Below, one piece after another: positions 1,415-58,762 of a stretch of DNA of 64,000 bases. The DNA is from Escherichia coli. Its GTDB lineage: Bacteria; Pseudomonadota; Gammaproteobacteria; Enterobacterales; Enterobacteriaceae. The first letter of the stretch is position 1. Each line of letters opens with the position of its first letter. The stretch is taken from NCBI RefSeq assembly GCF_044324875.1, contig NZ_CP172185.1, one strand, 5' to 3'. The position numbers were made by a program, and so were the translations under genes. Under the pieces are notes generated by a model that was not told where the DNA came from, searched no databases, and worked only from the letters and a program-made list of their open reading frames with translations.

Positions 1415-3322
1415 TTATCGTGGAAAACGAAAAGGGGAATACCCCACATCGTGCGTGATTTTCATCAGGGGATCGGCTTTGCCCGGTACATCAATTATCT
1501 TCATACCTGGCGGAGCATTCTCGAACGTGACTTTCAGTTCGCTGTGCTGTGTCATGGAAGAAGATGGATTCAACAGCGGAACATTGGGTTTGTACTGGCT
1601 CAGGCTGGCCTGATACTGCTCGTACTCTTTACGATCAAAAAAAGGCGTCCAGTCTGAAGCCAGAAACAGCCCTTTATTATCCAGCCAGTTAACCGTATCT
1701 TCAGGAACAACACTTTCCAGAGTATCTTTAACCGGCTCATACATCAGGGTTCCCAGAAAACCATATCCCCCGGCCTTCCCGATAAAGCCGCGGCCTTTCC
1801 CCATCAATCCCGTTTCTGCCGATACCTTCCCCAGCGTACGCATCTCTCTGGTCACTGCGGTAATGGATTTGGTAACGTCAGCAACCCATTTGGTTGCCAT
1901 AAACAGGGCAATCGCTTTCAGAACAGTTTCCCATCCCCCCATCGCCTGCGCCGTTTCATCCACCACGTGCCAGACTTTTTTTATGACAGGGCCTACGGTT
2001 TCCCAGTTATCAATAATGAGGTAAGCGCCACCAACCAGAAGAGCAATCAGCCCCTTAGCTGGCGTCATATTCATCACACCGCCGAGAACTTTCATAATTC
2101 TGGACAAAGAGCCTGCAGCGGCTCCCACCGTCAGTAAGGCCAGACCGATTTTAGCAATGGTCTTAACGAGCTCCGGGTTTTCACGGACAAACGTTCTCAC
2201 TTCCTCAAGGAGCGGTTTTACCGCTTCAAGACCATCATTAACCTCAGGAAGAAACGTTTCCCCCAGCGTGGAAGAAATGGCATCAAGTTGATTTTGCAGA
2301 AGTAAAAGCTGGTTTTCCGTCGTCGCTGCCCTCGAAGCATATTCCTTCTGCATCGAACTGCCATACTGCTGGGAATCCGCAACCCGCCTGAAGTTGGTAC
2401 GCAACAAATCAAGGTTAGTCAGCAGAGGTGCTATCGCGCCCAGAGACTCTTTCCCGAACAGGGCATTCAGCACAGCGGCCCGTTTTTCTTTAGGCACTTT
2501 AGCCATCGCATCCAGTACAGACAGCATGGTGCCCCGGGCATCTTTCTGCATATCAGCAGCTAATTTCTTCGGATTGATCCGCAGAAAACGCAATGCCTGT
2601 TTCTGCGATTTTGTCGCAGAATTTCCCGCGGTCAGGGAAAGCATGAAGTTCTTGATCCCTGTGGCGGCAATTTCTGACTCCACGCCCATCCCGGCAATGG
2701 TTGCCCCCATTGCCGCAATTTCGCCGGAAGCCACACCTGCAACACCACCTAAAGGACCAATACGCGTAACAATATCGGAGATTTTCTTCGCATTCGCCGG
2801 GCCGGTATTACCAAGGTAGTTGATTTTGTCAGCCAGCCCGGCCACTTCATCCTGCGTCATATTAAACGCAGTACGCCACTGGGCCATCATCTGCCCGGAC
2901 TCTTCAGCCGTTGTATCAAAGGCCACGCCCATCTTCACCGCATCAGTGGCAAACTGCATCAGTTCATCACGTGCAATCCCGGCCTGACCGCCAGCCGCCA
3001 CAATTTCCGCGATCCCGTCTGCAGACATGGGAAGCTCTGTAGACAAAGCGCGTACCTGCTCCGTCATGGCCTTAAATGCATCCGGCGTATCCAGACCGTC
3101 CACCACTTTGCGGACATCAGCCATCTTCGATTCAAGGGTGATGGCTGATTTTACAGGGAGTGCCAGTGCCCCCATTATTGCAGTACCCGCCCCGGCAGCA
3201 CCCAGAGCAAGGCTGGAGACTTCTTTCTGAAATCCCTTAAGCTGACGCTGCATACCTTTAAGCGGGCCGGATAGCCTGTCAACGGCGGTGATGATGGCTT
3301 TCAGCTGAAAATTATCAGCCAT
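1415..3322 (-). CDS. Tail tape measure protein
   Basis: 635-aa ORF, Ala/Gly-rich with hydrophobic central segments, positioned between tail chaperone and Mu N-like gene. Confidence 0.7.
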   Translation of the reverse strand: MADNFQLKAIITAVDRLSGPLKGMQRQLKGFQKEVSSLALGAAGAGTAIMGALALPVKSAITLESKMADVRKVVDGLDTPDAFKAMTEQVRALSTELPMSADGIAEIVAAGGQAGIARDELMQFATDAVKMGVAFDTTAEESGQMMAQWRTAFNMTQDEVAGLADKINYLGNTGPANAKKISDIVTRIGPLGGVAGVASGEIAAMGATIAGMGVESEIAATGIKNFMLSLTAGNSATKSQKQALRFLRINPKKLAADMQKDARGTMLSVLDAMAKVPKEKRAAVLNALFGKESLGAIAPLLTNLDLLRTNFRRVADSQQYGSSMQKEYASRAATTENQLLLLQNQLDAISSTLGETFLPEVNDGLEAVKPLLEEVRTFVRENPELVKTIAKIGLALLTVGAAAGSLSRIMKVLGGVMNMTPAKGLIALLVGGAYLIIDNWETVGPVIKKVWHVVDETAQAMGGWETVLKAIALFMATKWVADVTKSITAVTREMRTLGKVSAETGLMGKGRGFIGKAGGYGFLGTLMYEPVKDTLESVVPEDTVNWLDNKGLFLASDWTPFFDRKEYEQYQASLSQYKPNVPLLNPSSSMTQHSELKVTFENAPPGMKIIDVPGKADPLMKITHDVGYSPFRFPR

Positions 3323-5741: not shown

Positions 5742-6302
5742 TCAGGAAGGAAGGGTTATTTCGGTGTGATGTTCGATATCGCCGTCAGGCCCGTTACCGG
5801 GATCGAGATAATCAACATCAATCGCCAGCGTTCGCAGTTCATCCAGACTGTTCAGGTCATCCTGCTGGCGGGTATCGTCTTCGGTCAGCTCGCTGATGAC
5901 CGAAAAATCGAACTGATAAATCAGCTCATGACGATTCAGATCCAGCAGCGTGCCGCCGTCATAGGTAATCGGGTTACCGCACGCTTCCGGGTTCCAGCCC
6001 AGCAGAGCCTTAAAGAGCATCTGCCGGACATCGTCCACCACATCATACGAGGCAAACTGACCGCGCTCATCACGCCCGTTACTCAGTATGACAACCACGG
6101 AGAAGCCCTCTTTCAGCTCCTGCCAGTAGTCGGTCTGGCTTTTGTTTTCTCCCGGAGAGTCATCACCCGGTACCACATACGCCGCCGGGAGTCTCAGCTT
6201 TCCGACCTCCGGCAGATTTTTGAACTGTGCCGCGCCTGCCACCCGGTTTTCAAAATACGGGCAGCGGGCACGCAGCGCAGCAATAACAGGCGTCAGTTTC
6301 AT
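5742..6302 (-). CDS. Phage structural protein (head-tail joining or tail completion)
   Basis: 186-aa ORF in head-tail joining block; position-based. Confidence 0.4.
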   Translation of the reverse strand: MKLTPVIAALRARCPYFENRVAGAAQFKNLPEVGKLRLPAAYVVPGDDSPGENKSQTDYWQELKEGFSVVVILSNGRDERGQFASYDVVDDVRQMLFKALLGWNPEACGNPITYDGGTLLDLNRHELIYQFDFSVISELTEDDTRQQDDLNSLDELRTLAIDVDYLDPGNGPDGDIEHHTEITLPS

Positions 6303-19550: not shown

Positions 19551-20381
19551 TCAATGAACGGTATCGAGCAGCTTTAACAGCTCAGGGAACCGGGATTCGA
19601 AGAAATGCGGCTGCGTCTCGCGCGGATTTGCGGGACTGGTGATGTTCTTGCCGAACATGCAGCCTTTCGCCGTCAGCGACCAGAATTTTTTGATGTTGTT
19701 AATCGCAGTGCGGCTGTATCGTTCACGTTGTTCAACGATCCCCAGCTTCGCCATCTGGTGATATGCCTGATTAGCTGTCAGGCGGATACCATACTGCTTC
19801 AGCAGTGCACTCAGTGACAGCGTGGGGCGGCTTGAGCCATCAGGCGCGTCAGCAGGAGCATCAATGGCATAGCGCGGTGCCAGATTCGGTAAGCCAACAG
19901 CCTCCTGGAGTTTCTGACAGGCACCAAGCACTGAAGAGTTAGACAGGTTTAATTCCCGGCGCATAAAGTCCAGCAGAATCACACCAGCCTGCATCTTGTC
20001 AGCAGCCTGTCCGGATAATTTTTCCGGTGCGCTGGTTACCATGTCGAAAGTACGGATCACCTTCAGATGGAATGACGGGCTTATCCACATTGCATAGGCA
20101 TACACCAGTTCTTTGCAGACATACGTCCCCTGGTTATTTCCGCCACGAATAACGTTAACTGGCTCTATATTGACCGAGTTGCAAATCTGCAACTCGCTTA
20201 TTAAACGTTCAGTTTGCTCATTGCGGAGCCAGAATGCAGGCTTATGCTTATCCAGAGAACCGGCAGCCCTGTGCAGATCGTTCAGGCTGTAACGACCATA
20301 AGCATCACGACGAACTTCAATACCATCAATGACCATCAGATTATTCATACTTCGTTTCTCCTCTTGATCAGGCGGCTGCAC
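19551..20381 (-). CDS. KilA-N domain protein
   Basis: N-terminal VIDGIEVRRDAYGRYSLNDLHRAAG motif of the KilA-N DNA-binding domain. Confidence 0.7.
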   Translation of the reverse strand: MQPPDQEEKRSMNNLMVIDGIEVRRDAYGRYSLNDLHRAAGSLDKHKPAFWLRNEQTERLISELQICNSVNIEPVNVIRGGNNQGTYVCKELVYAYAMWISPSFHLKVIRTFDMVTSAPEKLSGQAADKMQAGVILLDFMRRELNLSNSSVLGACQKLQEAVGLPNLAPRYAIDAPADAPDGSSRPTLSLSALLKQYGIRLTANQAYHQMAKLGIVEQRERYSRTAINNIKKFWSLTAKGCMFGKNITSPANPRETQPHFFESRFPELLKLLDTVH

Positions 20382-20757
20382 CCGCCGTTTTCTCGTACTT
20401 ACTGATGGTGATCTCGACCTTCCCTTTCGGGATAACCGGTCCCCACTCCACCAGCATTCTTTTCACCTGTCTGTCGTCTTCCCACACACCCGCGTGGGTC
20501 AACGCGTCAAACAGCGCCTTGTTATAGTTGTCCAGATCGCGGATCCGGTTATCCGGAGGAAACAACACGATCTCCACTGAAGCAGGTGCCGACGTTGGTT
20601 TTGGCAGACGACGTAACTGCTCAACTATTGCTGCGCACGCCGCGCTCTGAAATTTTCGCCCCGCCGCGCTTATCAGGCTCTTACCAGCAAATGCCCCTTT
20701 GTTGGGGTGTCGCCAGTACGTGTTCACGCTGGGCGGGAAAGGCAGGATCAGCTTCAT
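20368..20757 (-). CDS. rusA: Holliday junction resolvase RusA
   Basis: 129-aa ORF with RusA-like sequence in the ninR-equivalent region. Confidence 0.85.
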   Translation of the reverse strand: MKLILPFPPSVNTYWRHPNKGAFAGKSLISAAGRKFQSAACAAIVEQLRRLPKPTSAPASVEIVLFPPDNRIRDLDNYNKALFDALTHAGVWEDDRQVKRMLVEWGPVIPKGKVEITISKYEKTAGAAA

Positions 20758-21080
20758 ACTTTCAGGCCTCTCTCATGTAACCAGTGGGTTGCACGCAGCC
20801 TGGCGTTTTCCTCACCGGCAAGCAGTGAGCGGATAATCCCGACCGCCTCGCTGTCGTCGTCCTTCACCGCGGTATGAAGAGTGATACCCCGGGCCACGCC
20901 ACGCTTTATCGTGATGACGCCTTTTTTCTCCAGTGCGCGAAGATGTTCCACCGCTGCATTCACTGAACGGTATCCCAGCATGGTTGCCACCTCCTGATTG
21001 GTTGGCGGGAAGCCACGTTCTTTCTGGTAAGAAATCAGCATATCCAGCACCTGCTGCTGGCATTGAGTTAACGTCGTCAT
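20754..21080 (-). CDS. LexA DNA-binding-domain-like protein lacking peptidase domain
   Basis: 108-aa ORF aligning by eye to the LexA N-terminal winged helix (QQQVLDML...GFPPT..E.A..LGYRS.NAA.EHL.AL.KKGVI). Confidence 0.6.
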   Translation of the reverse strand: MTTLTQCQQQVLDMLISYQKERGFPPTNQEVATMLGYRSVNAAVEHLRALEKKGVITIKRGVARGITLHTAVKDDDSEAVGIIRSLLAGEENARLRATHWLHERGLKV

Positions 21081-21729
21081 GCCGCCATCTCCCTGACCAG
21101 TTTTTCCGCCTGCTGGCGAACCTGCGCCAGAAACGCCTCACCACATGCCTCAAGTTCATCGCGCCCGATGTAGCTGATTGCCGGTCCCTTCCAGGTCTTG
21201 TCGAAAACAGCAATAGCACCAGCGAAGAAAGCGCCTGTCGGCACCTGCTTCTCGTCCTTCGGTATAAACCAGGCAGGCAGTTCAAAACCAATACGCCCGC
21301 GAATAAAAGCAATATGATCTGCATCTTCCGGCCACCACACTTCGCTGGTGGCCGCTTTGATCAGGAAAACATAGCGCCCGCCCTTATCACGCATGGCACT
21401 GGCATGTTTCATGATGTAACGCATGCCGGTGATGTATTGCCCCTCATGCTGACTGGCGCGGCTGTATGGGGATTACCAAAGGCAGCACCTTTAAGCTCCG
21501 CAAGACGTTCTGACCAGTCATGCGCCAGCGCGTTATCTTCCGCCGTGTAATACGCGGCACATTTGGCGTTATCACCGTCAGTAAACAGATCCAGAACAAA
21601 CGGGCCAAACAGTGTGTTAATTCCCCAGAAAATGTTGTCCGGCGTGCGCCACTGATCGCCCACTTCCTTCAGTTCATGGGCTGGTTTGTTCCGCAGTTCC
21701 ACCAGTGCCTGACAATATTTATTACTCAT
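21077..21729 (-). pseudogene. Phage DNA N6-adenine methyltransferase (Dam family) split by a 1-nt frameshift
   Basis: ORFs 21409-21762 and 21077-21424 together match the Dam family (WRTPD...NAKC..YYT...FGNP); frame breaks in a G4 run at 21469-21472 exactly at the NPPY motif. Confidence 0.7.
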
Positions 21730-22223
21730 TAAGCCCCCACGTAATTCCCTGACAGATACCACTCTTCACCCGATGCTGCGCGCTTGCTGCTTTTCTGTAA
21801 GCACTGCTCACGACGCGCCAGAAAATTGTTTCGTTCTGGCTGGGAGTGGCTTTCACGGAATGCCGCCATCCACACCGTTGCAGCACGACGGTATAAGCCC
21901 CTGGACTCCAGTTCTTCAGCCTGGCGGGTCAGGCACAAAATCACCCGGGGATCGTTAGTGCCGACATAGAAATTGCGCACAGGTCTAGTTTCACGAACTG
22001 GTTGTGGTTCCGGCTCCTGCGCTCTCTCAGTCAGGCGCGGGAAATGTCTGCGTGTATCTCCTTCACAACGGTGAGCCACACGCCCACTCTGACGTAACTT
22101 GCTTGCTGACTGCAGAACGCGCTGTCGTGAGTAACCTGCAAAAGCATCCGCAATGTCTCCGGAAGTACACCCCGGATGGGCTTCAATGAATTTCTGAACT
22201 TCATTCAAAAGACTCATAATCAC
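21729..22223 (-). CDS. Phage early protein, putative regulator
   Basis: 164-aa ORF whose stop overlaps the Dam start (TAATG). Confidence 0.4.
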   Translation of the reverse strand: MIMSLLNEVQKFIEAHPGCTSGDIADAFAGYSRQRVLQSASKLRQSGRVAHRCEGDTRRHFPRLTERAQEPEPQPVRETRPVRNFYVGTNDPRVILCLTRQAEELESRGLYRRAATVWMAAFRESHSQPERNNFLARREQCLQKSSKRAASGEEWYLSGNYVGA

Positions 22224-23161
22224 CCCCTGAATCCTGCCGGGATCTGGCTGTAGTCCACGTTGTCGTAACTGGCTTTGAAGTACGGGTCTTCGCGTTTTTC
22301 TGTGTGCGTGCTGACGGACGGCGATAAGCGCAGGGAAAGCTCATCCCATTTTTCCCGCAACTTCGACGGGCTGAGCACGTTACGGCACCAGAACGGATCG
22401 CGGCTGACGCGGCTGTACATCTCGCAGATTTGTTTGTGAGTACGACCATCCTGCACACACATCAGGCGAATTTCGTTTGCCCAGGCTGTCCAGTTAGGTT
22501 CTTTGGGACGAACCACCTCGCCGTCACATTCGGCGGCCTGCTCGTACAGGGCGATGATTTTTTTCCAGAGCCACTGTGCGCAGGTCAAATCATCCTGCGT
22601 TCCCCACTGGCGCTTTTTAGGGCTGAATACAACCGCATCAGGATGGCGAGTTAAAAAATCCTGTTCATCCATCTGCGTGTCCGGTTGCGAAGCGTCCGGA
22701 CGAGAAGGTTTTTTATCTGATGGATCATGTTTTGATTTTACTGACGGATCCCCGCCAGATTCTGACGGGTGAAAACCCGCTTTTTTGCCAGATTTCGACG
22801 CATCAAATTTTGACGGGTCAGATTTTGATGCGTCAGATTTTGACGGGTCAGAATCTGACAGTTGAGAAAATGCCGCTGCCTGAAGCTTCGCAACGTTAAG
22901 CTGATAAACATTCGACGCATTGCGGTTACCCTGGCGACGCGCCTTACGCGTTAACCAGCCTTCTGCTTCCAGCCGTGCGATAGCCGTTCTGACGGTACTC
23001 ATCCCCGCGCCAATCTGGCGGGCAATGGTTTCAATTGATGGCCAGCACACACCTTCGTCATTACTGAAATCAGCCAGGCGGGCCATAATTGCCACGCTGG
23101 ATAATTTCATGCCTGACGCAGCGCAACCATCCCATACATAGCCGGTTAATTTAGTGCTCAT
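22220..23161 (-). CDS. Replication initiation protein, O-like with N-terminal HTH
   Basis: 313-aa ORF with HTH near the N-terminus and an internal iteron-encoded repeat, in the O position. Confidence 0.65.
   Translation of the reverse strand: MSTKLTGYVWDGCAASGMKLSSVAIMARLADFSNDEGVCWPSIETIARQIGAGMSTVRTAIARLEAEGWLTRKARRQGNRNASNVYQLNVAKLQAAAFSQLSDSDPSKSDASKSDPSKFDASKSGKKAGFHPSESGGDPSVKSKHDPSDKKPSRPDASQPDTQMDEQDFLTRHPDAVVFSPKKRQWGTQDDLTCAQWLWKKIIALYEQAAECDGEVVRPKEPNWTAWANEIRLMCVQDGRTHKQICEMYSRVSRDPFWCRNVLSPSKLREKWDELSLRLSPSVSTHTEKREDPYFKASYDNVDYSQIPAGFRG
22762..22860. repeat. Iteron array (putative phage origin) inside the O-like gene
   Basis: About six direct repeats of a 12-15 bp unit related to GATTTTGACGGG. 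Confidence 0.5.
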
Positions 23162-23509
23162 GACCGACCTCTATTTCCCTGAATTTACGACGAAACTGTT
23201 CGAGCGGACTGAAGCATTCATGCTCATAGCCTTCGCGGAGGTAGATAACCCGTTGTGTTTCCGGCTCCCAACGAATGACTCTGACGGGCACTCCGTAGTG
23301 ATCTTTGAACCAGCGGTTAACTTGTCGCAAAGGACTGTCTCCTTCTGCCGGTTGAAATCACCCACAGCCCACTCTGCAAAGCTGTGGGTTACAATTTCCC
23401 TGTCACCTAGTACATTCACTGCATAGCAATATTCCACCTTCGCTTTTCCACCCGGTACAGGAAGCGCAATCAGTTGCGAGCGACGGTAGTGTGTTGTTAA
23501 ACTGTTCAT
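23151..23509 (-). pseudogene. Small early gene upstream of O, apparently frameshifted (or two overlapping short ORFs)
   Basis: Protein-like N-terminal half in one frame and protein-like C-terminal half (...[23 protein letters not shown]...) in the -1 frame ending at the O start; junction near 23325-23350. Confidence 0.35.
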
Positions 23510-24075
23510 GCGTTAGTTTCTCCACAACCAGAAGCAATCGACGCCACGACGCCCGGAGCTGCACACTCGCGGGCGTCATTACTTTCTGAAATGCAAAAAA
23601 TTTTGTAGACAAGTGCTGCATGCTCCTGCAGCTTCGAAATTGAGAGATACAGCTCGTCGTTAATTGCTGTCTTCTCATGCGGTTCCACTACACCGTCTTC
23701 GATTGCTGAACGAATCTGTTTTGAATAACTGCCGATCTGTTCAATGACTTCCAGCAGACGCTGGTTAATATCGGCGTTGTCCACATCCTCGACGTCAGGA
23801 AGAGACACAAAGACGCCATTTGCAGACTGCGCCACAGCATCAGCAATGAAATGAGTGCCACCAGCACGCTGTAAAACCATTGCCCATCCCAGCGGGAAAA
23901 TCTGATCGCCATCTGCACGAAGGCGGTTGAATAAAGCGTTTTCTGTTACATCGAGCCAGTCAGCCGCTTCAGCGTAACCACCCGGCAACGCCGCGATAGT
24001 TTTTCTGACAGCTTTCACGTACCACTCAGGCTGTTTTTCTATTTTCCAGTGATGCTTACCCACGATTAGCCTCAT
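23506..24075 (-). CDS. Putative CII-like early regulatory protein
   Basis: 189-aa ORF in the cII-equivalent position directly downstream of cro; position-based. Confidence 0.35.
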
Positions 24076-24106
24076 CGTTCTGTGGTTAAAAATTGAAAGT
24101 GTTCTG

Positions 24107-24310
24107 CTAATCTTTCGGATAGATATCCGGTCTTAAGTCAGATTTCGTAATTGCACCTGACGTGCATTGCTCAAGTTTTTTAGCCAGCACAAAACTGGCT
24201 TTTTTATAGCCATTGAAAACCAGCCGTAAGTAGCCAGGTGTTGAGCCAACTTTTCCGGCCAACTCGCCCTGCTGTTCTTTGGTTAAAGAGTCCCAATACG
24301 CTTTCATACA
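24107..24310 (-). CDS. Cro-like repressor (YdaS/Cro family HTH)
   Basis: 67-aa product from Met 24310 with C-terminal DLRPDIYP-like motif; the listed longer ORF reads through the operator region. Confidence 0.7.
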   Translation of the reverse strand, partial: CMKAYWDSLTKEQQGELAGKVGSTPGYLRLVFNGYKKASFVLAKKLEQCTSGAITKSDLRPDIYPKD

Positions 24311-24397
24311 ATATGTACCTCCGGTATACATATTACATGATTGAAATGAACCTTCAAGATACTTGTACCTTAACGGTACAAGGGTTTTAATTTCGTT
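24311..24397. promoter_or_regulatory. Immunity switch: divergent promoters with palindromic operators
   Basis: Palindromes ATGTACC-tcc-GGTATACAT (24314-24332) and CTTGTACC-ttaac-GGTACAAG (24362-24382); no Shine-Dalgarno before the cI ATG. Confidence 0.6.
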
Positions 24398-25072
24398 ATG
24401 AAAACAATCCATGACATCCGGCGGTCTAACGCCAGAAAACTGAGAGATGGTGTTGGCGGGAATTCTTCCTTTGCCACTATGATTGATCGCGAGCCAACCC
24501 AGACCAGCAGGTTTATGGGAGATGGTGCTACTAAAAATATCGGTGACAGCATGGCACGACACATCGAAAAATGTTTCGACCTGCCTGTCGGATGGCTCGA
24601 TCAAGAACACCAGACAACGAACATCACAAAAAAACCTGATGTTTCAATCACTAATAAACAAATCACATTAGTCCCTGTCATATCATGGGTACAGGCCGGA
24701 GCATGGAAAGAAGTTGGATATTCTGAGGTTGATTTGAGCACAGCAGAAACGTATCCCTGCCCTGTACCCTGTGGGGAAATGACTTATATCTTGCGGGTGA
24801 TAGGTGATTCAATGATTGATGAGTACCGCCCGGGAGACATGATTTTTGTCGATCCTGAAGTACCTGCCTGCCACGGTGACGACGTTATTGCATTGATGCA
24901 CGATACAGGTGAAACCACCTTCAAAAGGTTGATAGAAGATGGGACACAGCGTTATCTCAAAGCGTTAAACCCAAACTGGCCTGAGCCTTACATTAAGATC
25001 AACGGTAATTGCTCTATAATTGGAACTGTGATTTTCTCAGGAAAACCAAGAAGATACAAAATCAAAGCCTAA
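24398..25072 (+). CDS. CI-like repressor with HTH and LexA-like S24 peptidase domain
   Basis: 224-aa ORF; N-terminal HTH and C-terminal GDSM...K autocleavage domain. Confidence 0.85.
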   Translation: MKTIHDIRRSNARKLRDGVGGNSSFATMIDREPTQTSRFMGDGATKNIGDSMARHIEKCFDLPVGWLDQEHQTTNITKKPDVSITNKQITLVPVISWVQAGAWKEVGYSEVDLSTAETYPCPVPCGEMTYILRVIGDSMIDEYRPGDMIFVDPEVPACHGDDVIALMHDTGETTFKRLIEDGTQRYLKALNPNWPEPYIKINGNCSIIGTVIFSGKPRRYKIKA

Positions 25073-25084
25073 TCAATGTTTATG

Positions 25085-25108
25085 AACCTGCTTCGGCAGG
25101 TTTTTTTA
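25085..25108 (+). terminator. Intrinsic terminator after the repressor gene
   Basis: CCTGC-ttcg-GCAGG hairpin followed by seven T. Confidence 0.6.
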
Positions 25109-25111
25109 TAC

Positions 25112-25140
25112 TTGACAATGTACCTTTGGGATACATAATG
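25112..25140 (+). promoter_or_regulatory. pL-like promoter with overlapping operator
   Basis: TTGACA, 16-17 bp spacer containing TGTACC...GGATACA operator-like half-sites, then CATAAT. Confidence 0.55.
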
Positions 25141-25226
25141 TGCCCAAGAGAAACAACAAACAGGCAGGACGCCCACGAAGTAGCCGCCTGGAGCATATGA
25201 AGTCTAGGATGATTCGTTAGCAACAA

Positions 25227-25261
25227 AAAAGCGCCCTACAGGACGCTTAGCTCTTTAACAA
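25227..25261 (+). promoter_or_regulatory. Hairpin plus rrn-type boxA-like element in pL leader
   Basis: GC-rich hairpin 25231-25246 then GCTCTTTAACAA at 25250-25261, matching the rrn boxA core. Confidence 0.4.
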
Positions 25262-25306
25262 TCAGGTCCCCATCAACAAGTAACTGATAACTTGAGGAGG
25301 TGTGAA

Positions 25307-25513
25307 ATGCACAAAACAGAACCAAAAATCGTCGCGCCCGGATACACAAATGAGGAAATTTACGAGTGGATGGCAAAGAAGCTGGCAGCTATAAACCAGC
25401 TTCGTGAAGTGCTGTCTTATCGACAGGAAACAATAGACTCCTTAAAAAAACTGGATCAGGAAATCACGGTTTTATCACAGGATGTTACTTTAGATATTGT
25501 GCAGACAAATTAG
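25307..25513 (+). CDS. Hypothetical 68-aa protein, first gene after pL
   Basis: Strong GAGGAGG ribosome-binding site 6 nt before ATG; no arginine-rich motif. Confidence 0.5.
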   Translation: MHKTEPKIVAPGYTNEEIYEWMAKKLAAINQLREVLSYRQETIDSLKKLDQEITVLSQDVTLDIVQTN

Positions 25514-25919
25514 GATCCCATTCATTTTCGTCAAAATCATCAAAGTGATGAATTTGTGATCTCCAGTCTCGATAATCTAAAAATTTCTGGGCGGTTACGC
25601 TTATTTTATCAAGCGTGAGTTCATCCTGAATTGAAAGAAGAAGTTCATCAAATTTCATCTCATTAATCTGTTTTGGCATCCAGTGATGCTTCATCAGAAT
25701 AAGGTGAACCAGAGCTTTTTTCCCATTCAACTGATTATAGGGAGTGCCGAATTTCTTCCGGTGCTCATGTAAGACAAGGTCCAGAAGAGTAAGTAATGTT
25801 GCCCTTGATTCAACTTTGCTTATTTCGACTGATGACACTACCCCACTGATTTCAATGCCCCGATACTTTCCAACATTTTCACAGTGGGATTTGTACAGCG
25901 TATAGATATTACCGGACAT
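25485..25919 (-). CDS. Hypothetical 144-aa protein antisense to the pL operon
   Basis: AT-rich ORF with AAGGA ribosome-binding site; 3' end overlaps 25307-25513 convergently by 29 nt. Confidence 0.5.
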   Translation of the reverse strand: MSGNIYTLYKSHCENVGKYRGIEISGVVSSVEISKVESRATLLTLLDLVLHEHRKKFGTPYNQLNGKKALVHLILMKHHWMPKQINEMKFDELLLSIQDELTLDKISVTAQKFLDYRDWRSQIHHFDDFDENEWDPNLSAQYLK

Positions 25920-26070
25920 TTCTTTTCCTTTTGCGTTGTTGGGGATAACCAGATTAACCGAATCCTTGTTGTTGGGGAATAACCAGGTCCACCTCGCCTG
26001 ATGTGGCTAAAAGCAGGCACATAACAGCTAAGTATTTTCAACCAGAGAGAATCCTTAGCGTTGTGGTGAA

Positions 26071-26387
26071 TGCGGCTCAGCGCACGCGGGTTAAGGTTGA
26101 GGCTGACAGTCGACCTTCTGTGGATACCCACCCGCCTGGTGTGCAACCTTCGCCAGGCACCGGGAGGCACCCGGCACCACAACTTTATGCTGCGTGTAGT
26201 CTTGGCGGTACCAGCTTTTACCCTTGCTTCCGGCTGGTACCGTCCTTTTTACAAAACAGAGAAGAGCATTACCGGACGACGGGCTCATAACTCAATCCAT
26301 CCGGGCGGCTGCCACCGCAGGTGTTCTTCTCTGTTTTGTGGAGAAACTAATCGGCTTTGCAGGGTCGATATGATGAGGAGCAGCAAA
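26071..26387. other. GC-rich structured noncoding segment (candidate cis-acting RNA or ncRNA)
   Basis: Nested inverted repeats including a 12-bp stem GGCGGTACCAGC/GCTGGTACCGTC (26211-26251); short ORFs in several frames without ribosome-binding sites. Confidence 0.3.
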
Positions 26388-26750
26388 ATGGCTAGCGAAC
26401 GCAGTACTGATGTGCAAGCATTTATCGGGGAGCTGGACGGCGGCGTATTTGAAACCAAAATCGGCGCAGTTCTCAGTGAAGTCGCTTCCGGTGTGATGAA
26501 CACGAAAACCAAAGGTAAGGTCTCACTCAACCTGGAAATCGAACCATTTGATGAAAACCGTGTGAAAATCAAACACAAACTCTCATATGTTCGCCCGACT
26601 AACCGCGGGAAAATTTCCGAAGAAGACACCACCGAAACGCCGATGTATGTCAATCGCGGTGGTCGCCTGACTATTCTGCAGGAAGACCAGGGACAATTAC
26701 TGACTCTTGCCGGTGAACCTGACGGAAAACTCCGCGCAGCAGGTCATTAA
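26388..26750 (+). CDS. Hypothetical early-left protein (CPS-53 YfdP-like)
   Basis: 120-aa product from Met 26388 preceded by GAGGAG; the upstream in-frame extension from 26070 looks noncoding. Confidence 0.5.
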   Translation: MASERSTDVQAFIGELDGGVFETKIGAVLSEVASGVMNTKTKGKVSLNLEIEPFDENRVKIKHKLSYVRPTNRGKISEEDTTETPMYVNRGGRLTILQEDQGQLLTLAGEPDGKLRAAGH

Positions 26751-26815
26751 TATCGTTCTTAATTAACCGATTATTTATCTCATCACTGAATATCTTAATA
26801 TAGTGAGGACTTATT

Positions 26816-27640
26816 ATGTCTCAAAACTTAGACGCAACCGCATTTAATCAAATCCATGCCCTTATTTCTGCTCAGGGTGTTAATGAAATTATCAGTAAGA
26901 TTGGTGCCGATGCTGTGGCATTGCCTGAGAATTTCCGCATTCATGATCTGGAAAAATTTAATTTAAATCGCTTCCGTTTCCGTGGTGCGCTTTCCACTGC
27001 CAGCATCGATGACTTTACCCGTTATTCTAAAGATCTTGCAGATGAAGGCACCCGCTGCTTTATCGATGCTGATAATATGCGTGCCGTCAGTGTGCTTAAC
27101 CTGGGTACTATTGATGAACCAGGTCACGCAGATAACACCGCCACTCTCAAACTGAAAAAGACAGCACCGTTCTCTGCTCTGTTGTCTGTTAATGGCGAGC
27201 GTAACTCCCAGAAATCACTGGCAGAATGGATTGAAAACTGGGCCGACTACCTTGTGGGCTTTGATGCTAATGGTGACGCCATTCAGGCAACCAAAGCGGC
27301 GGCGGCTATCCGTAAAATCACAATTGAAGCGAACCAGACCGCTGATTTTGAAGATAATGACTTCAGCGGCAAACGCTCCCTGATGGAGTCTGTCGAAGCG
27401 AAGACCAAAGACATTATGCCAGTGGCATTTGAATTTAAATGCGTTCCGTTTGAAGGCCTGAAAGAACGTCCATTTAAATTACGCCTCAGCATTATCACTG
27501 GCGATCGTCCTGTACTGGTTCTGCGCATTATTCAGCTGGAAGCGGTGCAGGAAGAAATGGCTAACGAATTTCGTGATCTGCTTGTTGAGAAATTCAAAGA
27601 CAGCAAAGTAGAAACCTTTATTGGTACTTTCACCGCCTGA
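26816..27640 (+). CDS. DUF2303-type protein (YfdQ-like)
   Basis: 274-aa ORF recalled as matching E. coli CPS-53 YfdQ. Confidence 0.6.
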
Positions 27641-27767
27641 TTTCATTACTGCAAATGCCCCTGCGGGGGAATTTATGGAAACGTAATTAACTCAATAATC
27701 GCCGGATGGTGAGGACTTCCTTTTACCAGAATTCAGCGCGGTGCAGCGCATATACGTGGAGAACAAA

Positions 27768-28304
27768 ATGTCATTTATTAAAACTTTTTCCGGGAAGCAT
27801 TTTTATTATGACAAGATAAATCAAGACGACATCGTTATTAACGATATCGCGGTTTCCCTTTCAAATATCTGTCGCTTTGCAGGACATCTTTCACATTTCT
27901 ACAGCGTCGCCCAACATGCGGTGCTTTGCAGCCAACTGGTGCCGCAGGAATTTGCTTTTGAAGCGTTAATGCATGATGCAACAGAAGCGTATTGCCAGGA
28001 CATCCCGGCGCCACTGAAACGCCTTCTTCCTGACTATAAACGGATGGAAGAAAAAATAGACGCCGTAATCCGTGAGAAATACGGGTTACCCCCAGTTATG
28101 AGTACACCCGTGAAATATGCCGATCTCATCATGCTGGCAACTGAACGCCGCGATCTCGGGCTTGATGATGGCTCTTTCTGGCCAGTACTGGAAGGTATCC
28201 CGGCAACAGAGATGTTCAAAGTTATTCCACTGGCACCGGGCCATGCCTACGGGATGTTTATGGAACGCTTCAACGAGTTATCGGAATTACGCAAATGTGC
28301 ATAA
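27768..28304 (+). CDS. HD-domain phosphohydrolase (YfdR-like 5'-deoxynucleotidase)
   Basis: 178-aa product with H..HD metal-binding signature (HAVL...MHDATEAY). Confidence 0.65.
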   Translation: MSFIKTFSGKHFYYDKINQDDIVINDIAVSLSNICRFAGHLSHFYSVAQHAVLCSQLVPQEFAFEALMHDATEAYCQDIPAPLKRLLPDYKRMEEKIDAVIREKYGLPPVMSTPVKYADLIMLATERRDLGLDDGSFWPVLEGIPATEMFKVIPLAPGHAYGMFMERFNELSELRKCA

Positions 28305-29173
28305 CTCATGTAGTTAGTTTTTCTGGCGGGAGAACATCCGCATATCTTGTTCACCTGATGGAAGAACAAAGAAAGGCTGGCAATAACGTCTGCTACATCT
28401 TTATGGATACCGGTTGCGAACATCCGCTGACATACCGCTTTATCCGGGAGGTTGTGAAGTTCTGGGACATACCACTAACTGTGTTACAGGTCGATATAAA
28501 TCCTGAGCTTGGGCAGCCAAATGGTTATACAGAATGGGAGCCAACGGATATTCAGACACGAATGCCGGTGCTTAAACCGTTTATGGACATGGTTAAAAAG
28601 TACGGCACGCCATACATCGGCGGCGCGTTCTGTACTGACAGGCTAAAACTCATCCCTTTCACGAAATACTGCGATAACCATTTCGGGCGAGGTAATTACA
28701 TCACATGGCTGGGTATTCGTGCAGACGAACCCCGTAGGCTGAAACCGAAATCGGGCGTCCGGTATCTTGCCGAGCTGTCAGATTTTGATAAGTCGGATGT
28801 TATCCGGTGGTGGCGAAAACAACCTTTTGATTTGCAAATCCCGGAGCATCTCGGGAACTGTGTTTTCTGCATCAAAAAGTCAACGCAAAAGCTGGGGCTT
28901 GCATGTAAAGACGAACCAGGTCTGATGCGAGTTTTTAATGAGCTGGTTACAGGCAAACACGTCAGGGATGGTCATCGCAGAACAGGTAAAGACATTATGT
29001 ACCGTGGTCACCTGACGCTTGACGGAATTGCCAGAATGTCTGCCAACAGCGACTACAGAAATTTGTATCAGGCGATGGTACAGGCCAGGCGATTCGATAC
29101 CGGCTCGTGTTCAGAGTCATGTGAAATCTGGGGTGATCAATTGGAATTGGAATTCGAAGAGGTAGGGGTATGA
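28295..29173 (+). CDS. PAPS reductase-like PP-loop protein
   Basis: 292-aa ORF with N-terminal SFSGGRTS PP-loop ATP-pyrophosphatase motif. Confidence 0.7.
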   Translation: MCITHVVSFSGGRTSAYLVHLMEEQRKAGNNVCYIFMDTGCEHPLTYRFIREVVKFWDIPLTVLQVDINPELGQPNGYTEWEPTDIQTRMPVLKPFMDMVKKYGTPYIGGAFCTDRLKLIPFTKYCDNHFGRGNYITWLGIRADEPRRLKPKSGVRYLAELSDFDKSDVIRWWRKQPFDLQIPEHLGNCVFCIKKSTQKLGLACKDEPGLMRVFNELVTGKHVRDGHRRTGKDIMYRGHLTLDGIARMSANSDYRNLYQAMVQARRFDTGSCSESCEIWGDQLELEFEEVGV

Positions 29174-29514
29174 CAACCGAAATTAACTACCATGCACTGC
29201 TTGAGCGCGCACGGAATAAAGTGCAGAGCATTGAGTTCGCCTTAACACAGAGTGCATTCGCTGAGATTCGCGCTGAGCTTGAAAATGATTTAGAACTGGC
29301 ACGGATTGCACTGGCATCTCTGGAAGTTGAGCCAGATGAACGCGCAGCCTATGAATTATTTATGGAAAAGCGTTTCGGTAAAACAGTCGATCGTCGGAGA
29401 GCAAAAAACGGCGATAACGAATACATGGCATGGGATATGACTCTCGGTTGGATCATCTGGCAGCAACGAGCTGGTATCCATTTTTCAACAATGTCACAAC
29501 AAGAGGTGAAATAA
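29170..29514 (+). CDS. Hypothetical protein
   Basis: 114-aa ORF overlapping previous stop by 4 nt. Confidence 0.45.
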   Translation: MTTEINYHALLERARNKVQSIEFALTQSAFAEIRAELENDLELARIALASLEVEPDERAAYELFMEKRFGKTVDRRRAKNGDNEYMAWDMTLGWIIWQQRAGIHFSTMSQQEVK

Positions 29515-29628
29515 TAGAGCCATACAGCCTCACACTCGATGAGGCCTGTTCATTGCTCAATGATATCCAGACCTACCATCGCCGCATCAATGCGGCTTTT
29601 TCTTGCGTGTAATTGCGGAGACTTTGCG

Positions 29629-29847
29629 ATGTACTTGACACTTCAGGAGTGGAACGCTCGCCAGCGACGCCCAAGAAGCCTTGAAACAGTTCGTCGATGG
29701 GTGCGCGAATGCAGGATATTCCCTCCTCCGGTTAAGGATGGAAGAGAGTATCTGTTCCACGAATCAGCGGTAAAGGTTGACTTAAATCGACCAGTAACAG
29801 GTAGCCTTTTGAAGAGGATCAGAAATGGGAAGAAGGCGAAGTCATGA
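29629..29847 (+). CDS. xis: Excisionase Xis (lambda)
   Basis: 72-aa product MYLTLQEWNARQRRPRSLETVRRW... matches lambda Xis as recalled. Confidence 0.9.
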   Translation: MYLTLQEWNARQRRPRSLETVRRWVRECRIFPPPVKDGREYLFHESAVKVDLNRPVTGSLLKRIRNGKKAKS

Positions 29848-30895
29848 GCGCCGGGATTTACCCCCTAACCTTTATATAAGAAACAATGGATATTACTGCT
29901 ACAGGGACCCAAGGACGGGTAAAGAGTTCGGATTAGGCAGAGACAGGAGGATAGCAATTACTGAAGCAATACAGGCAAACATTGAGTTATTTTCAGGACA
30001 CAAACACAAGCCTCTGACAGCGAGAATCAACAGTGATAATTCTGTTACGTTACATTCATGGCTTGATCGCTACGAAAAAATCCTCGCCAGCAGAGGAATC
30101 AAGCAGAAGACACTTATAAATTACATGAGCAAAATTAAAGCAATAAGGAGGGGGCTACCTGATGTTCCACTTGAAGACATCACCACAAAAGAAATTGCAG
30201 CAATGCTCAATGGATACATAGACGAGGGCAAGGCGGCGTCAGCCAAGTTAATCAGATCAACACTGAGCGATGCATTCCGAGAGGCAATAGCTGAAGGCCA
30301 TATAACAACAAACCCGGTCGCTGCCACTCGCGCAGCAAAATCAGAGGTAAGGAGATCAAGACTTACGGCTGACGAATACCTGAAAATTTATCAAGCAGCA
30401 GAATCATCACCATGTTGGCTTAGACTTGCAATGGAACTGGCTGTTGTTACCGGGCAGCGAGTTGGTGATTTATGCGAAATGAAGTGGTCTGATATCGTAG
30501 ATGGATATCTTTATGTCGAGCAAAGCAAAACAGGCGTAAAAATTGCCATCCCAACAGCATTGCATGTTGATGCTCTCGGAATATCAATGAAGGAAACACT
30601 TGATAAATGCAAAGAGATTCTTGGCGGAGAAACCATAATTGCATCTACTCGTCGCGAACCGCTTTCATCCGGCACAGTATCAAGGTATTTTATGCGCGCA
30701 CGAAAAGCATCAGGTCTTTCCTTCGAAGGGGATCCGCCTACCTTTCACGAGTTGCGCAGTTTGTCTGCAAGACTCTATGAGAAGCAGATAAGCGATAAGT
30801 TTGCTCAACATCTTCTCGGGCATAAGTCGGACACCATGGCATCACAGTATCGTGATGACAGAGGCAGGGAGTGGGACAAAATTGAAATCAAATAA
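29825..30895 (+). CDS. int: Integrase Int (lambda, tyrosine recombinase)
   Basis: 356-aa product MGRRRSHERRDLPPNLYIRNNGYYCYRDPRTGKEF... matches lambda Int as recalled. Confidence 0.95.
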   Translation: MGRRRSHERRDLPPNLYIRNNGYYCYRDPRTGKEFGLGRDRRIAITEAIQANIELFSGHKHKPLTARINSDNSVTLHSWLDRYEKILASRGIKQKTLINYMSKIKAIRRGLPDVPLEDITTKEIAAMLNGYIDEGKAASAKLIRSTLSDAFREAIAEGHITTNPVAATRAAKSEVRRSRLTADEYLKIYQAAESSPCWLRLAMELAVVTGQRVGDLCEMKWSDIVDGYLYVEQSKTGVKIAIPTALHVDALGISMKETLDKCKEILGGETIIASTRREPLSSGTVSRYFMRARKASGLSFEGDPPTFHELRSLSARLYEKQISDKFAQHLLGHKSDTMASQYRDDRGREWDKIEIK

Positions 30896-30983
30896 TGATT
30901 TTATTTTGACTGATAGTGACCTGTTCGTTGCAACAAATTGATAAGCAATGCTTTTTTATAATGCCAACTTAGTATAAAAAAGC
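30896..30983. other. attL: phage P' arm and 15-bp att core
   Basis: TTAGTATAAAAAAGC at 30969-30983 is the reverse complement of the lambda core GCTTTTTTATACTAA, preceded by lambda P' arm sequence. Confidence 0.85.
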
Positions 30984-31029
30984 AGGCTTCAACGGATTCA
31001 TTTTTCTATTTCATAGCCCGGAGCAACCT

Positions 31030-56350: not shown

Positions 56351-56426
56351 TGGTGGGTCGTGCAGGATTCGAACCTGCGACCAATTGATTAAAAGTCAAC
56401 TGCTCTACCAACTGAGCTAACGACCC
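56351..56426 (-). tRNA. lysQ: tRNA-Lys (UUU)
   Basis: Reverse complement is a 76-nt tRNA-Lys with CCA end; position 7 of the lysT operon. Confidence 0.95.
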
Positions 56427-56459
56427 CTTGCGGGATTATGCTGCTTTAATCATTCAGGA

Positions 56460-56535
56460 TGGTGGGTCGTGCAGGATTCGAACCTGCGACCAATTGATTA
56501 AAAGTCAACTGCTCTACCAACTGAGCTAACGACCC
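56460..56535 (-). tRNA. lysZ: tRNA-Lys (UUU)
   Basis: Identical 76-nt tRNA-Lys copy. Confidence 0.95.
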
Positions 56536-56583
56536 ATACGGGTGTTACCTGAAAGATTTCTACTCGGAACCAATCTTTAAAAT

Positions 56584-56600
56584 TGGTGGGTCGTGCAGGA
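56584..56600 (-). repeat. tRNA-Lys 3'-end fragment at start of a ~70-bp spacer repeat
   Basis: TGGTGGGTCGTGCAGGA then diverges; the spacer recurs at 57077-57150. Confidence 0.5.
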
Positions 56601-56681
56601 TGACTCGCTTCGCTCGCCCTACGGGCCGTTGCTGGCGCAACGTTATCCTTCACGCTTAACATCTGAGTTTGATGTTAAAAT

Positions 56682-56757
56682 TGGTGGGTCGTGCAGGATT
56701 CGAACCTGCGACCAATTGATTAAAAGTCAACTGCTCTACCAACTGAGCTAACGACCC
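56682..56757 (-). tRNA. lysY: tRNA-Lys (UUU)
   Basis: 76-nt tRNA-Lys. Confidence 0.95.
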
Positions 56758-56760
56758 GAG

Positions 56761-56836
56761 TGGTGGGTGATGACGGGATCGAACCGCCGACCCCCTCCTT
56801 GTAAGGGAGGTGCTCTCCCAGCTGAGCTAATCACCC
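56761..56836 (-). tRNA. valZ: tRNA-Val (UAC)
   Basis: Reverse complement GGGTGATTAGCTCAGCTGGGAGAGCACCTCCCTTACAAGGAGG...CCA. Confidence 0.95.
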
Positions 56837-56887
56837 GATACTGCGCTGGATACTACAAACTACTTCCACCGAACCCACCGTAATTAG

Positions 56888-56963
56888 TGGTGGGTCGTGC
56901 AGGATTCGAACCTGCGACCAATTGATTAAAAGTCAACTGCTCTACCAACTGAGCTAACGACCC
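56888..56963 (-). tRNA. lysW: tRNA-Lys (UUU)
   Basis: 76-nt tRNA-Lys. Confidence 0.95.
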
Positions 56964-56965
56964 GG

Positions 56966-57041
56966 TGGTGGGTGATGACGGGATCGAACCGCCGACCCCC
57001 TCCTTGTAAGGGAGGTGCTCTCCCAGCTGAGCTAATCACCC
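56966..57041 (-). tRNA. valT: tRNA-Val (UAC)
   Basis: 76-nt tRNA-Val. Confidence 0.95.
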
Positions 57042-57076
57042 GATACTACGCTGGATACTACAACTAACTAGGTTAG

Positions 57077-57093
57077 TGGTGGATCGTGCAGGA
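57077..57093 (-). repeat. Second tRNA 3'-end fragment with spacer repeat
   Basis: TGGTGGATCGTGCAGGA followed by the same ~55-nt spacer as at 56601. Confidence 0.5.
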
Positions 57094-57176
57094 TGACTCG
57101 ACTTCGTCTCGCCCTTCGGGCCGTTGCTGATGCAACGTTATCCTTCACGTTTTACTACCGCTTCCACCTTAGCGAT

Positions 57177-57252
57177 TGGTGGGTCGTGCAGGATTCGAAC
57201 CTGCGACCAATTGATTAAAAGTCAACTGCTCTACCAACTGAGCTAACGACCC
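57177..57252 (-). tRNA. lysT: tRNA-Lys (UUU)
   Basis: 76-nt tRNA-Lys, first gene of the operon. Confidence 0.95.
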
Positions 57253-57415: not shown

Positions 57416-58207
57416 TTACATCGCGTTCAGACGTTTTTGCGCCTGTTTAGCGCCATCAGTACCAGGATATTTACTGATAACCTGCTGGTATACGGCTTTC
57501 GCTTTTGCGGTGTCACCTTTGTCCTGCATGATGACGCCGACTTTAAACATCGCATCTGCAGCCTTTGGTGACTTCGGATAGTTTTTCACTACCGAAGCAA
57601 AATAGTACGCCGCATCATCTTTTTTACCCTTGTTGTAGTTTAACTGACCCAGCCAATAATTGGCGTTTGGCAGGTAAGTTGAATCAGGGTAATTTTTGAT
57701 GAAATTCTGAAATGCCACCATTGCGTCATCCTGGCGGGATTTATCCTGCACCAGCGCAATAGCTGCATTGTAATCCGTGTTTGCATCACCGCTTTTCACC
57801 GGCGCGCCAGCATTCGCAGTACCAGCATCAGCTGTCGGCGTCGTTGATGCCGCCGCACCGCTTTGATCGCCGCTGGTTGATTGCGCCGCTGCACCACCGC
57901 TGCTGAGGCTATCGATCTGCAACAGGATCTGCTTTTGCCGCTCCACGACCTGATTCAGTTGATACTGATTTTCCTGAATCTGACCACGCAGGGAATCAAT
58001 ATCGGATTGATTATCAGAGAGTTGTTGCTGGAGTTGGGTTAAAAGCTGGCTGTGAGCATTTGAAATACGCTCAAGTTGAGTGACGCGGTCTTCGACCGAG
58101 CCTGAGCCGACACTACTGATTGGTGCCTGAGCAAAAGCGGCCCAGGGGGCCGCTATACCAACCAGTAACGACAGACTCAATAGTTGATGTCTGAAGTTAC
58201 TGCTCAT
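57416..58207 (-). CDS. cpoB: Cell division coordinator CpoB (YbgF)
   Basis: 263-aa product with signal peptide, coiled coil and TPR region. Confidence 0.95.
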   Translation of the reverse strand: MSSNFRHQLLSLSLLVGIAAPWAAFAQAPISSVGSGSVEDRVTQLERISNAHSQLLTQLQQQLSDNQSDIDSLRGQIQENQYQLNQVVERQKQILLQIDSLSSGGAAAQSTSGDQSGAAASTTPTADAGTANAGAPVKSGDANTDYNAAIALVQDKSRQDDAMVAFQNFIKNYPDSTYLPNANYWLGQLNYNKGKKDDAAYYFASVVKNYPKSPKAADAMFKVGVIMQDKGDTAKAKAVYQQVISKYPGTDGAKQAQKRLNAM

Positions 58208-58216
58208 GCAATTCTC

Positions 58217-58762
<546 letters not shown>

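Follow-up and report, generated by a model that had tools for sequence, protein, structure and literature searches.

The terminator/boxA module of the pL leader

The 64-kb stretch of Escherichia coli DNA analysed here (the window) holds a mosaic lambdoid prophage, and this report concerns the leader of its early-left transcript, which starts at a pL-like promoter. The leader contains a structured RNA, a hairpin and, directly after the hairpin, a copy of the boxA found in ribosomal RNA (rrn) leaders. An open reading frame (ORF) of 68 amino acids (aa) lies downstream on the same strand, and a 144-aa ORF faces it on the opposite strand. The coordinates of these features and of their neighbours are collected in Table 1.

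Table 1. Features of the early-left region and its surroundings, in window coordinates (nt, nucleotides; SD, Shine-Dalgarno sequence).
Feature	Position	Strand	Remarks
cro-like gene	24307-24110	-	
LexA-type (cI-like) repressor gene, ymfK type of K-12 e14	24398-25072	+	
Intrinsic terminator ending the cI-like (ymfK-type) repressor gene	25084-25110	+	8-pair stem, then T-run
pL-like sigma-70 promoter	25112-25139	+	TTGACA 25112-25117, 16-nt spacer, CATAAT 25134-25139
Structured leader RNA, 62 nt, candidate cis-acting antiterminator	25156-25217	+	Between pL and module
U-tract UUUUUUGUUG of opposite-strand intrinsic terminator	25219-25228	-	Top-ranked terminator-like site on the minus strand
Terminator hairpin	25229-25248	-	8 uninterrupted pairs in minus-strand RNA, one U·G
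rrn-type boxA GCTCTTTAACAA, putative NusB/NusE site on the pL transcript	25250-25261	+	
68-aa ORF	25307-25513	+	SD GAGGAGG; phrog_1744 (unknown function); RefSeq-called in 99% identical genome
Reverse accessory gene, 144 aa, 'ECs1072 family'	25485-25919	-	phrog_5286 full length, E = 1.5e-90; RefSeq annotation
Strong hairpin, 13 pairs, then CUUUUU; candidate intrinsic terminator in the pL operon	26204-26252	+	-25.7 kcal/mol, z = -3.4
lambda-like xis and int, end of the early-left operon	29539-30895		

The boxA sequence GCTCTTTAACAA agrees in all 12 nt with the core of the boxA in the E. coli rrnB leader (TGCTCTTTAACAA) and occurs only once in exact form in the window, on the plus strand, where about 0.008 exact copies would be expected by chance on both strands together. 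It is located at about +105 from the pL transcription start, which we place near 25146, and on the same strand as the promoter; the latter matches the consensus at 11 of 12 positions and is the top promoter-like site in the 20-31 kb interval. The first-pass annotation of this DNA had described a near-perfect ribosomal boxA about 100 nt from a pL-like promoter, in the hairpin-then-boxA order of rrn leaders, and our analysis bears out each of these points. The rrnB boxB hairpin likewise comes first, ending 2 nt ahead of boxA, whereas in lambda nutL and nutR the order is reversed and boxA precedes boxB. The 3-nt gap that had been given between hairpin and boxA holds if the G/C core of the stem alone is counted, and the full stem ends 1 nt before boxA.

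The first 11 nt of the element (25250-25260, GCTCTTTAACA) satisfy GYTCTTTAANA, the functionally derived gamma-proteobacterial boxA consensus (PMC5725501). Ribosomal BoxA is bound by NusB:NusE with an affinity of 5-8 nM, compared with 80-90 nM for lambda nut BoxA (PMC2800207). The dataset accompanying the consensus (Baniulyte et al, 2017; PMC5725501) also contains the entry 'GCTCTTTAACA, 31 bp, hypothetical protein' in E. coli UMN026 and E. fergusonii, and 31 bp is the distance from boxA to the TTG at 25292 in the window. The site was thus probably already catalogued, although it was left uninterpreted; the correspondence is one of motif and distance.

The hairpin that precedes boxA is better understood from the opposite strand. 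On the plus strand the GC-rich hairpin reported at first pass is only weakly formed (-7.5 kcal/mol, z = -1.35) and has an internal C·A mismatch, whereas the minus-strand RNA folds at about -12 kcal/mol. This asymmetry stems from one conserved position, which gives C·A in plus-strand RNA and U·G in minus-strand RNA. Read on the minus strand, the stem AAGCGUCCUGUAGGGCGCUU is followed by UUUUGUUGCU, and together they form the best terminator-like site in 20-31 kb. The run of A residues that adjoins the hairpin on the plus strand is kept in all copies of the module described below. The 144-aa reverse ORF ends 236 nt upstream of this terminator, and its transcript would run to 25248-25219. Although the geometry resembles that of boxB, with the hairpin 1 nt before boxA, the stem is more stable on the minus strand and carries the U-tract of that strand. 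Given the stronger stem, its U-tract and the reverse genes that accompany it, the identification of the hairpin as a predicted intrinsic terminator of the minus strand is well supported and fits better than that of an rrn boxB analogue. The earlier assignment of the hairpin to an rrn-style antiterminator is accordingly not upheld.

Scans of viral contigs provided the contexts in which this arrangement recurs, and the counts given in this section cover distinct contexts among the matches listed. By this comparison, positions 25219-25261 are shown to be one copy of a portable module of about 45 nt in which a terminator and a boxA stand back to back. A reverse ORF was found within 300 nt in 52 of 54 boxA-anchored contexts and within 40 nt of the module in 25 of them. 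These adjacent reverse ORFs fall into seven unrelated protein families, a result which rules out a single gene family with the module as its 3' untranslated region (UTR) and points to the module as a shared 3' end for accessory genes inserted backwards. Known defence genes were also considered for the reverse ORFs and rejected, as PADLOC gave no meaningful matches.

The module is common to phages with unrelated repressors, promoters and downstream sequences. SfV matches the window over pL and the leader's first ~70 nt, diverges at ~25213 and rejoins it at ~26010, which places the hairpin and boxA at the edge of a swapped cassette. The phage PhiR49_1 has the leader, hairpin and boxA of the window followed by a different reverse gene that ends about 20 nt away. 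A Klebsiella phage whose repressor, promoter and leader are all unrelated has these 45 nt unchanged except for the loop, next to yet another reverse gene. We also noted variants of the module: three copies have boxA directly abutting the hairpin with no spacer (loci L265, L286 and L305), and in one (L080) the hairpin is kept and boxA is degenerate (CACTTTTGAAC), as in a natural 'mutant'.

Because contexts chosen by their boxA would make any statement about its conservation circular, a second sample was anchored on the hairpin alone and was blind to boxA. It yielded boxA in 52 of 115 contexts, and in about 60 the same stem was followed by unrelated sequence. Within the boxA set, the single spacer base (25249 in the window) is free, with C in 22, A in 20 and T in 12 contexts, and GCTCTTTAA is invariant in 53-54 of the 54. 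Position 10 of boxA has C in 45 and A in 8, and this sole variable position is the N of GYTCTTTAANA. The corresponding entropies reach 1.54 bits at the spacer and 1.2-1.4 bits in the loop; they are 0-0.13 bits at boxA positions 1-9 and 0.73 bits at position 10. The conserved stem carries 24 different loops, and past boxA the conservation decays gradually, extending about 10 nt beyond it through TCTGGATATC. A maximally variable spacer between two invariant blocks rules out simple hitch-hiking of boxA with the terminator. As judged from this pattern of conservation, boxA is shown to be under purifying selection and to be a real element on the pL-sense strand. Its distribution is informative as well. 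All 58 hairpins without boxA (58/58) lie away from pL leader RNAs, and 41 boxA-bearing hairpins, plus the 3 without a spacer, lie within 700 nt downstream of such an RNA. The selected feature follows the position on the pL transcript, which favours a plus-strand function of boxA over one associated with the terminator.

For the reverse gene of the window itself, PADLOC returned no match. Just upstream of its start at 25919, in minus-strand sense, we observed direct repeats GTTGTTGGGGA(A)TAACCAG at 25935-25952 and 25967-25985, which might be regulatory sites of this ORF.

The structured leader RNA and the absence of N and put

Between pL and the module lies the structured leader RNA. Its core, AGGCAGGACGCCCACGAAGTAGC, is an invariant segment of 23 nt (25162-25184). 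An outer stem pairs 25156-25160 with 25213-25217, an invariant small hairpin pairs 25163-25165 with 25171-25173, and an inner stem pairs 25187-25191 with 25204-25208. Two of the leader stems co-vary: among 103 distinct sequences, 97.3% of cells are paired compared with 75% in shuffles, and a control in which the partner strand was slid gave 22-45%. Double compensatory changes are present in 9 of 13 pairs, and the covariation score was 0.54 versus 0.14. A covariance model built on this RNA found a single match in the 64-kb window, at 86 bits.

We found the core in over 120 viral contigs and in roughly a third of the complete E. coli genomes (about 1,800 of 5,426). The hosts comprise Escherichia, Shigella, Salmonella, Citrobacter, Klebsiella, Pantoea, Yersinia, Pectobacterium and Aeromonas. 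The e14 prophage of E. coli K-12 carries it too (locus L318, ~6110-6190, minus strand). Wherever it was found, the RNA is unannotated; Rfam contained no match for it, and a literal search of the open literature for the core sequence found no paper. Although the repressors differ, the RNA always follows closely on a cI-like gene and a strong promoter.

In phages of the SPN3UB type the leader RNA is followed by a second conserved hairpin element, ..TTAACGCGCAGNAGGTNTAAACGTTCCGCTGGCCGGCGATAAGGCA (SPN3UB ~1575-1625). This element was also observed at many IMG/VR loci and, in a Klebsiella phage without the leader core, ahead of the module (Kp4882-1 ~2960-3000). Its stem appears to co-vary, with CGCTGG/CCAGCG and CGCCAG/CTGGCG as alternative pairings.

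The leader RNA and the put RNA of phage HK022 share the short motifs CGAAC-GGC and GGAUGA, and we considered whether they belong to one family. Reciprocal covariance models and the disjoint sets of phages led us to reject this. The leader model (R1) had no match on HK022 putL or putR. The put model (R2) had none at the leaders of the window, ST64B, SPN3UB, ZF40 or YeP1, and scored HK639 putL, used as a control, at 94 bits. The annotated put phages and the leader-RNA phages do not overlap. Scanned with the put covariance model, the prophage yielded no HK022-type put RNA. The GC-rich segment 26040-26385 was also tried as a put candidate and set aside; its alignment with putL and putR was unconvincing and Rfam gave a near-threshold match to STnc100 instead.

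The first-pass annotation had noted the absence of a recognisable N gene, and this was borne out: none of the ORFs tested in the pL or pR operon matched an antitermination family in PHROGs, and none of the early-operon ORFs tested has an arginine-rich N-terminus. The 68-aa ORF, which starts 45 nt after boxA, encodes an acidic, helical protein without an arginine-rich motif and is not N-like. Among relatives, the first forward ORFs after the leader RNA form 82 unrelated clusters, with none matching an antiterminator family. At the RNA level, we found no boxB-type G/C hairpin 3' of boxA, as a lambda-type nut site would have, and no GU-rich boxC after it; the downstream sequence TCAGGTCCCCATCAACAAG is unlike rrnB TGTGTGGG.

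The boxA is also missing from most relatives. Within 260 nt it is absent from 93 of 114 distinct related leaders (~80%), including those of e14, SfV and ST64B. In K-12 e14 the same promoter, located downstream of ymfK, and the same leader run straight into the forward gene ymfJ with no module between them. Given this absence from about four-fifths of related pL leaders, e14 and SfV among them, the comparative evidence is that boxA accompanies reverse cassettes and not the phage group, and that it is not a general replacement for N. Of the rrn-style host antitermination that had been suggested for this prophage, a selected boxA and the lack of N are therefore retained, and the hairpin as a boxB analogue and the generality of boxA are not.

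The leader RNA is a more plausible candidate than boxA for a general antiterminator that would stand in for N. Three features suggest a conserved host machine, such as RNA polymerase, as its target: its position, unpaired bases that are conserved to an extreme degree, and the lack of any conserved expression platform.

Further along the pL operon, the strong hairpin at 26204-26252 lies upstream of yfdP-yfdQ-yfdR...xis-int, in a segment conserved in SfV. The plus-strand segment 26042-26253 gave a full-length Rfam match to STnc100 below the threshold (42.8 bits against a gathering value of 47, E = 2.5e-7), and its 3' end is this same hairpin (stem and loop 26204-26245), which also produced a weak DicF-like match. 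The segment could be a prophage small RNA, the first real terminator of the pL operon, or both. RefSeq places a frameshifted 'hypothetical' coding sequence in or beside 26042-26253 in a genome that is 99% identical. A perfect 15-bp inverted repeat, recognised by eye (ACAAAACAGAGAAGA ... TCTTCTCTGTTTTGT, with ~60 nt enclosed), lies on the plus strand at ~26251-26340, shortly before the start of yfdP at 26388; SfV conserves it as well.

The surroundings are mosaic. Region 20000-31000 combines e14-type immunity (ymfK/ymfT/ymfL/ymfM homologues) with an SfIV-type pL cassette, yfdP-yfdQ-yfdR, a PAPS-reductase-like gene and lambda-like xis and int. The best match to 24000-27000 among complete E. coli genomes is 99.0% identical. 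The pL leader region is 98% identical to that of Shigella phage SfIV, and parts of it are common to SfV, SfII, ST64B and mEp460. A CII-like gene is oriented like cro, opposite to the repressor and pL. The terminator that ends the repressor gene has a folding energy of -11.6 kcal/mol (z = -4.6). Elsewhere in the window, Rfam identified seven tRNA genes and two RtT elements at 56354-57252 and the cpoB/ybgF RNA thermometer at 58178-58316 on the minus strand, which we take to be the ordinary chromosomal context near the lambda attachment site.

Proposed roles and alternative explanations

We propose that the ~45-nt module serves both strands, acting as a terminator for reverse genes on the minus strand and, through boxA, shielding the pL transcript from Rho on the plus strand; on balance we think this is probably correct, with modest confidence. 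On the minus strand, the module would end the transcripts of backward accessory genes, here the 144-aa gene at 25919-25485, and would keep these transcripts out of pL and from running antisense into the repressor gene. On the plus strand, the hairpin would be weakened by the conserved C·A mismatch and would lack a proper U-tract, so that pL transcription could pass. The emerging GCUCUUUAACAA would then bind host NusB/NusE and nucleate a Nus complex with NusA, NusG and SuhB, and the elongation complex so modified would be expected to resist Rho across the untranslatable stretch antisense to the inserted gene, in the window ~25514 to 26387. The same reasoning holds for rrn operons and for CRISPR arrays, whose long untranslated transcripts a lone boxA protects from Rho (PMC7665894). 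According to this proposal boxA would be an accessory travelling with backward-facing cassettes, and the general role of N would fall to the leader RNA at 25156-25217, possibly acting on RNA polymerase in cis.

Several observations weigh against this proposal. The translated 68-aa ORF begins only 45 nt after boxA. Comparing the 'untranslated distance' of leaders with and without boxA gave a weak, confounded difference (p = 0.02). There is no evident Rho loading site, as the plus-strand RNA downstream is not C-rich/G-poor except at ~25800-25900. The promoter scan detected no sigma-70-like promoter for the 144-aa reverse gene. The phages SfV, AH07 and YeP1 carry reverse ORFs without the module, which is thus not obligatory. 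Finally, the complementary sequence may function in minus-strand RNA, the module being located at the 3' ends of reverse genes.

A wider scheme, which we regard as possible but doubtful, is that two previously undescribed RNA devices control the early-left operon of N-less prophages of the e14/SfV/ST64B type: the leader RNA, as a new class unrelated to HK022 put, would provide antitermination, and the terminator/boxA insulator would permit backward inserts by enlisting the rrn antitermination machinery of the host.

Among the alternatives, the closest to the first-pass interpretation takes boxB and boxA as an rrn-like antiterminator that gives the phage its main N-independent read-through in the early-left and early-right operons alike, the latter through a second boxA in cro. 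In accordance with this, rrnB has the identical boxA core and also places the hairpin ahead of it, and neither N nor put was detected. We nevertheless consider it unlikely, since ~80% of related pL leaders, including those of e14 and SfV, lack boxA, the hairpin is better formed on the other strand together with its U-tract, and no boxC-like element follows boxA. Also, rrn-type complexes act mainly against Rho and poorly against intrinsic terminators, and 26204-26252 is a candidate for one of these. The 'weaker copy' in cro that had been put forward for pR does not hold up. It is the minus-strand sequence ACTCTTTAACCA (24280-24291), it carries 2 mismatches, at which level 8 matches were seen in the window and 5.2 expected, it departs from GYTCTTTAANA at G1 and A11, and it lies inside a translated ORF. 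We discarded it on its chance frequency and broken consensus, and our scan of the window for a second boxA or a second leader RNA that would serve pR found none.

It is also improbable that the boxA acts like that of suhB, with Nus factors repressing translation of the 68-aa ORF and secondarily promoting Rho termination, which would attenuate the early-left operon. A boxA within 50 bp of the start represses suhB and a ParE-like toxin (PMC5725501), and the 31 bp of the catalogued GCTCTTTAACA entry match the distance to TTG 25292. However, most module contexts have no forward ORF after boxA and show only the end of a reverse gene, which argues that the conserved function is not repression of one particular ORF, and the SD of the 68-aa ORF is ~35 nt from boxA.

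A function in minus-strand RNA, to which we likewise give little credence, would make UUGUUAAAGAGC, just 5' of the terminator, a 3'-UTR element of accessory-gene mRNAs. Variants of this idea see in it a binding site for Hfq or another protein, or an 'anti-boxA' that would pair with boxA RNA, whether from rrn leaders or from lambdoid phages entering the cell. The position of the module at the 3' end of reverse genes and the conservation for ~10 nt past boxA, through TCTGGATATC, speak for it; conserved single-stranded segments beside terminators are typical of 3'-UTR-derived regulatory RNAs. Against it, both the boundaries of the element and its one variable position match the plus-strand NusB/NusE consensus exactly, which would be a striking coincidence, hairpins of the same sequence serve elsewhere as terminators without boxA, and an RNA directed against rrn boxA would endanger the host.

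That boxA has no function, being a chance likeness that rode along on a terminator or recombination linker of recent spread, is very unlikely: mosaic junctions right at the module edges and the close relationship of many copies would suit this explanation, but the spacer is the most variable position (1.54 bits) and 24 loops occur, yet nine boxA positions are invariant in 53-54 of 54 contexts, and an exact rrn boxA 12-mer is expected only ~0.008 times per window.

Comparison with known systems

On how lambdoid phages that have neither N nor put get past their early terminators, a 2025 survey goes no further than to speculate that ST64B-like phages "may" use put (PMC12315714). The 12-nt boxA and the 62-nt leader RNA provide concrete, mutable targets for addressing this question. 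If the proposed role of the module is correct, it would represent the first use by a phage of boxA-only protection from Rho in the style of rrn operons and CRISPR arrays. It would also offer a compact design rule for the antisense insertion of genes into an operon, with relevance to the acquisition of morons and to synthetic biology. On the evidence of the sequences compared, what is new is a mobile module that joins a free-standing boxA, back to back, to a terminator of the other strand. Of the two elements, the neighbouring leader RNA is the greater novelty.

The module has its closest parallel in the E. coli rrn leader (boxB-boxA-boxC, with NusA/B/E/G, SuhB and S4). The two share the identical 12-nt core GCUCUUUAACAA, a hairpin that ends 1-2 nt upstream of boxA and a strong promoter ~100 nt upstream. 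Unlike in the rrn leader, the hairpin of the module is an apparent opposite-strand terminator that is weakened on the sense strand, and there is no boxC-like element. In addition, the module is mobile between phages, and downstream of it lies a phage operon (a short ORF and an antisense stretch) in place of a structural RNA.

The boxA of CRISPR arrays in Salmonella and Vibrio (Stringer et al, 2020; PMC7665894) is likewise a stand-alone element without N or boxB. Like the module, it precedes a long untranslated transcript, is proposed to block Rho and was acquired independently outside ribosomal RNA operons. The module differs from it in belonging to a phage early operon, in having its boxA back to back with a terminator of the other strand and in being known from sequence alone.

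In common with the lambda nut sites, the module occupies a pL leader in a lambdoid prophage and its boxA is predicted to engage host NusB/NusE; the module boxA variant GCTCTTTAAAAAT resembles lambda nutL GCTCTTAAAAAT. In contrast to nut, the hairpin comes before boxA, no boxB-type hairpin comes after it, there is no N gene, and boxA has the full high-affinity rrn form. The boxA in the 5'-UTR of suhB (PMC5725501) also fits GYTCTTTAANA and lies within 50 bp of an ORF start, as does that of the window. It represses translation and promotes Rho termination, whereas most copies of the module have no downstream forward ORF.

For the leader RNA, the nearest counterpart is HK022 put. In both cases the pL transcript of a lambdoid phage without N opens with a structured RNA, and no conserved expression platform follows. 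They differ in architecture and number: the leader RNA has an enclosing stem with two internal hairpins where put has two side-by-side stems, and it is present as one copy per phage, consistent with its single match in the window, where put has two copies, one early-left and one early-right.

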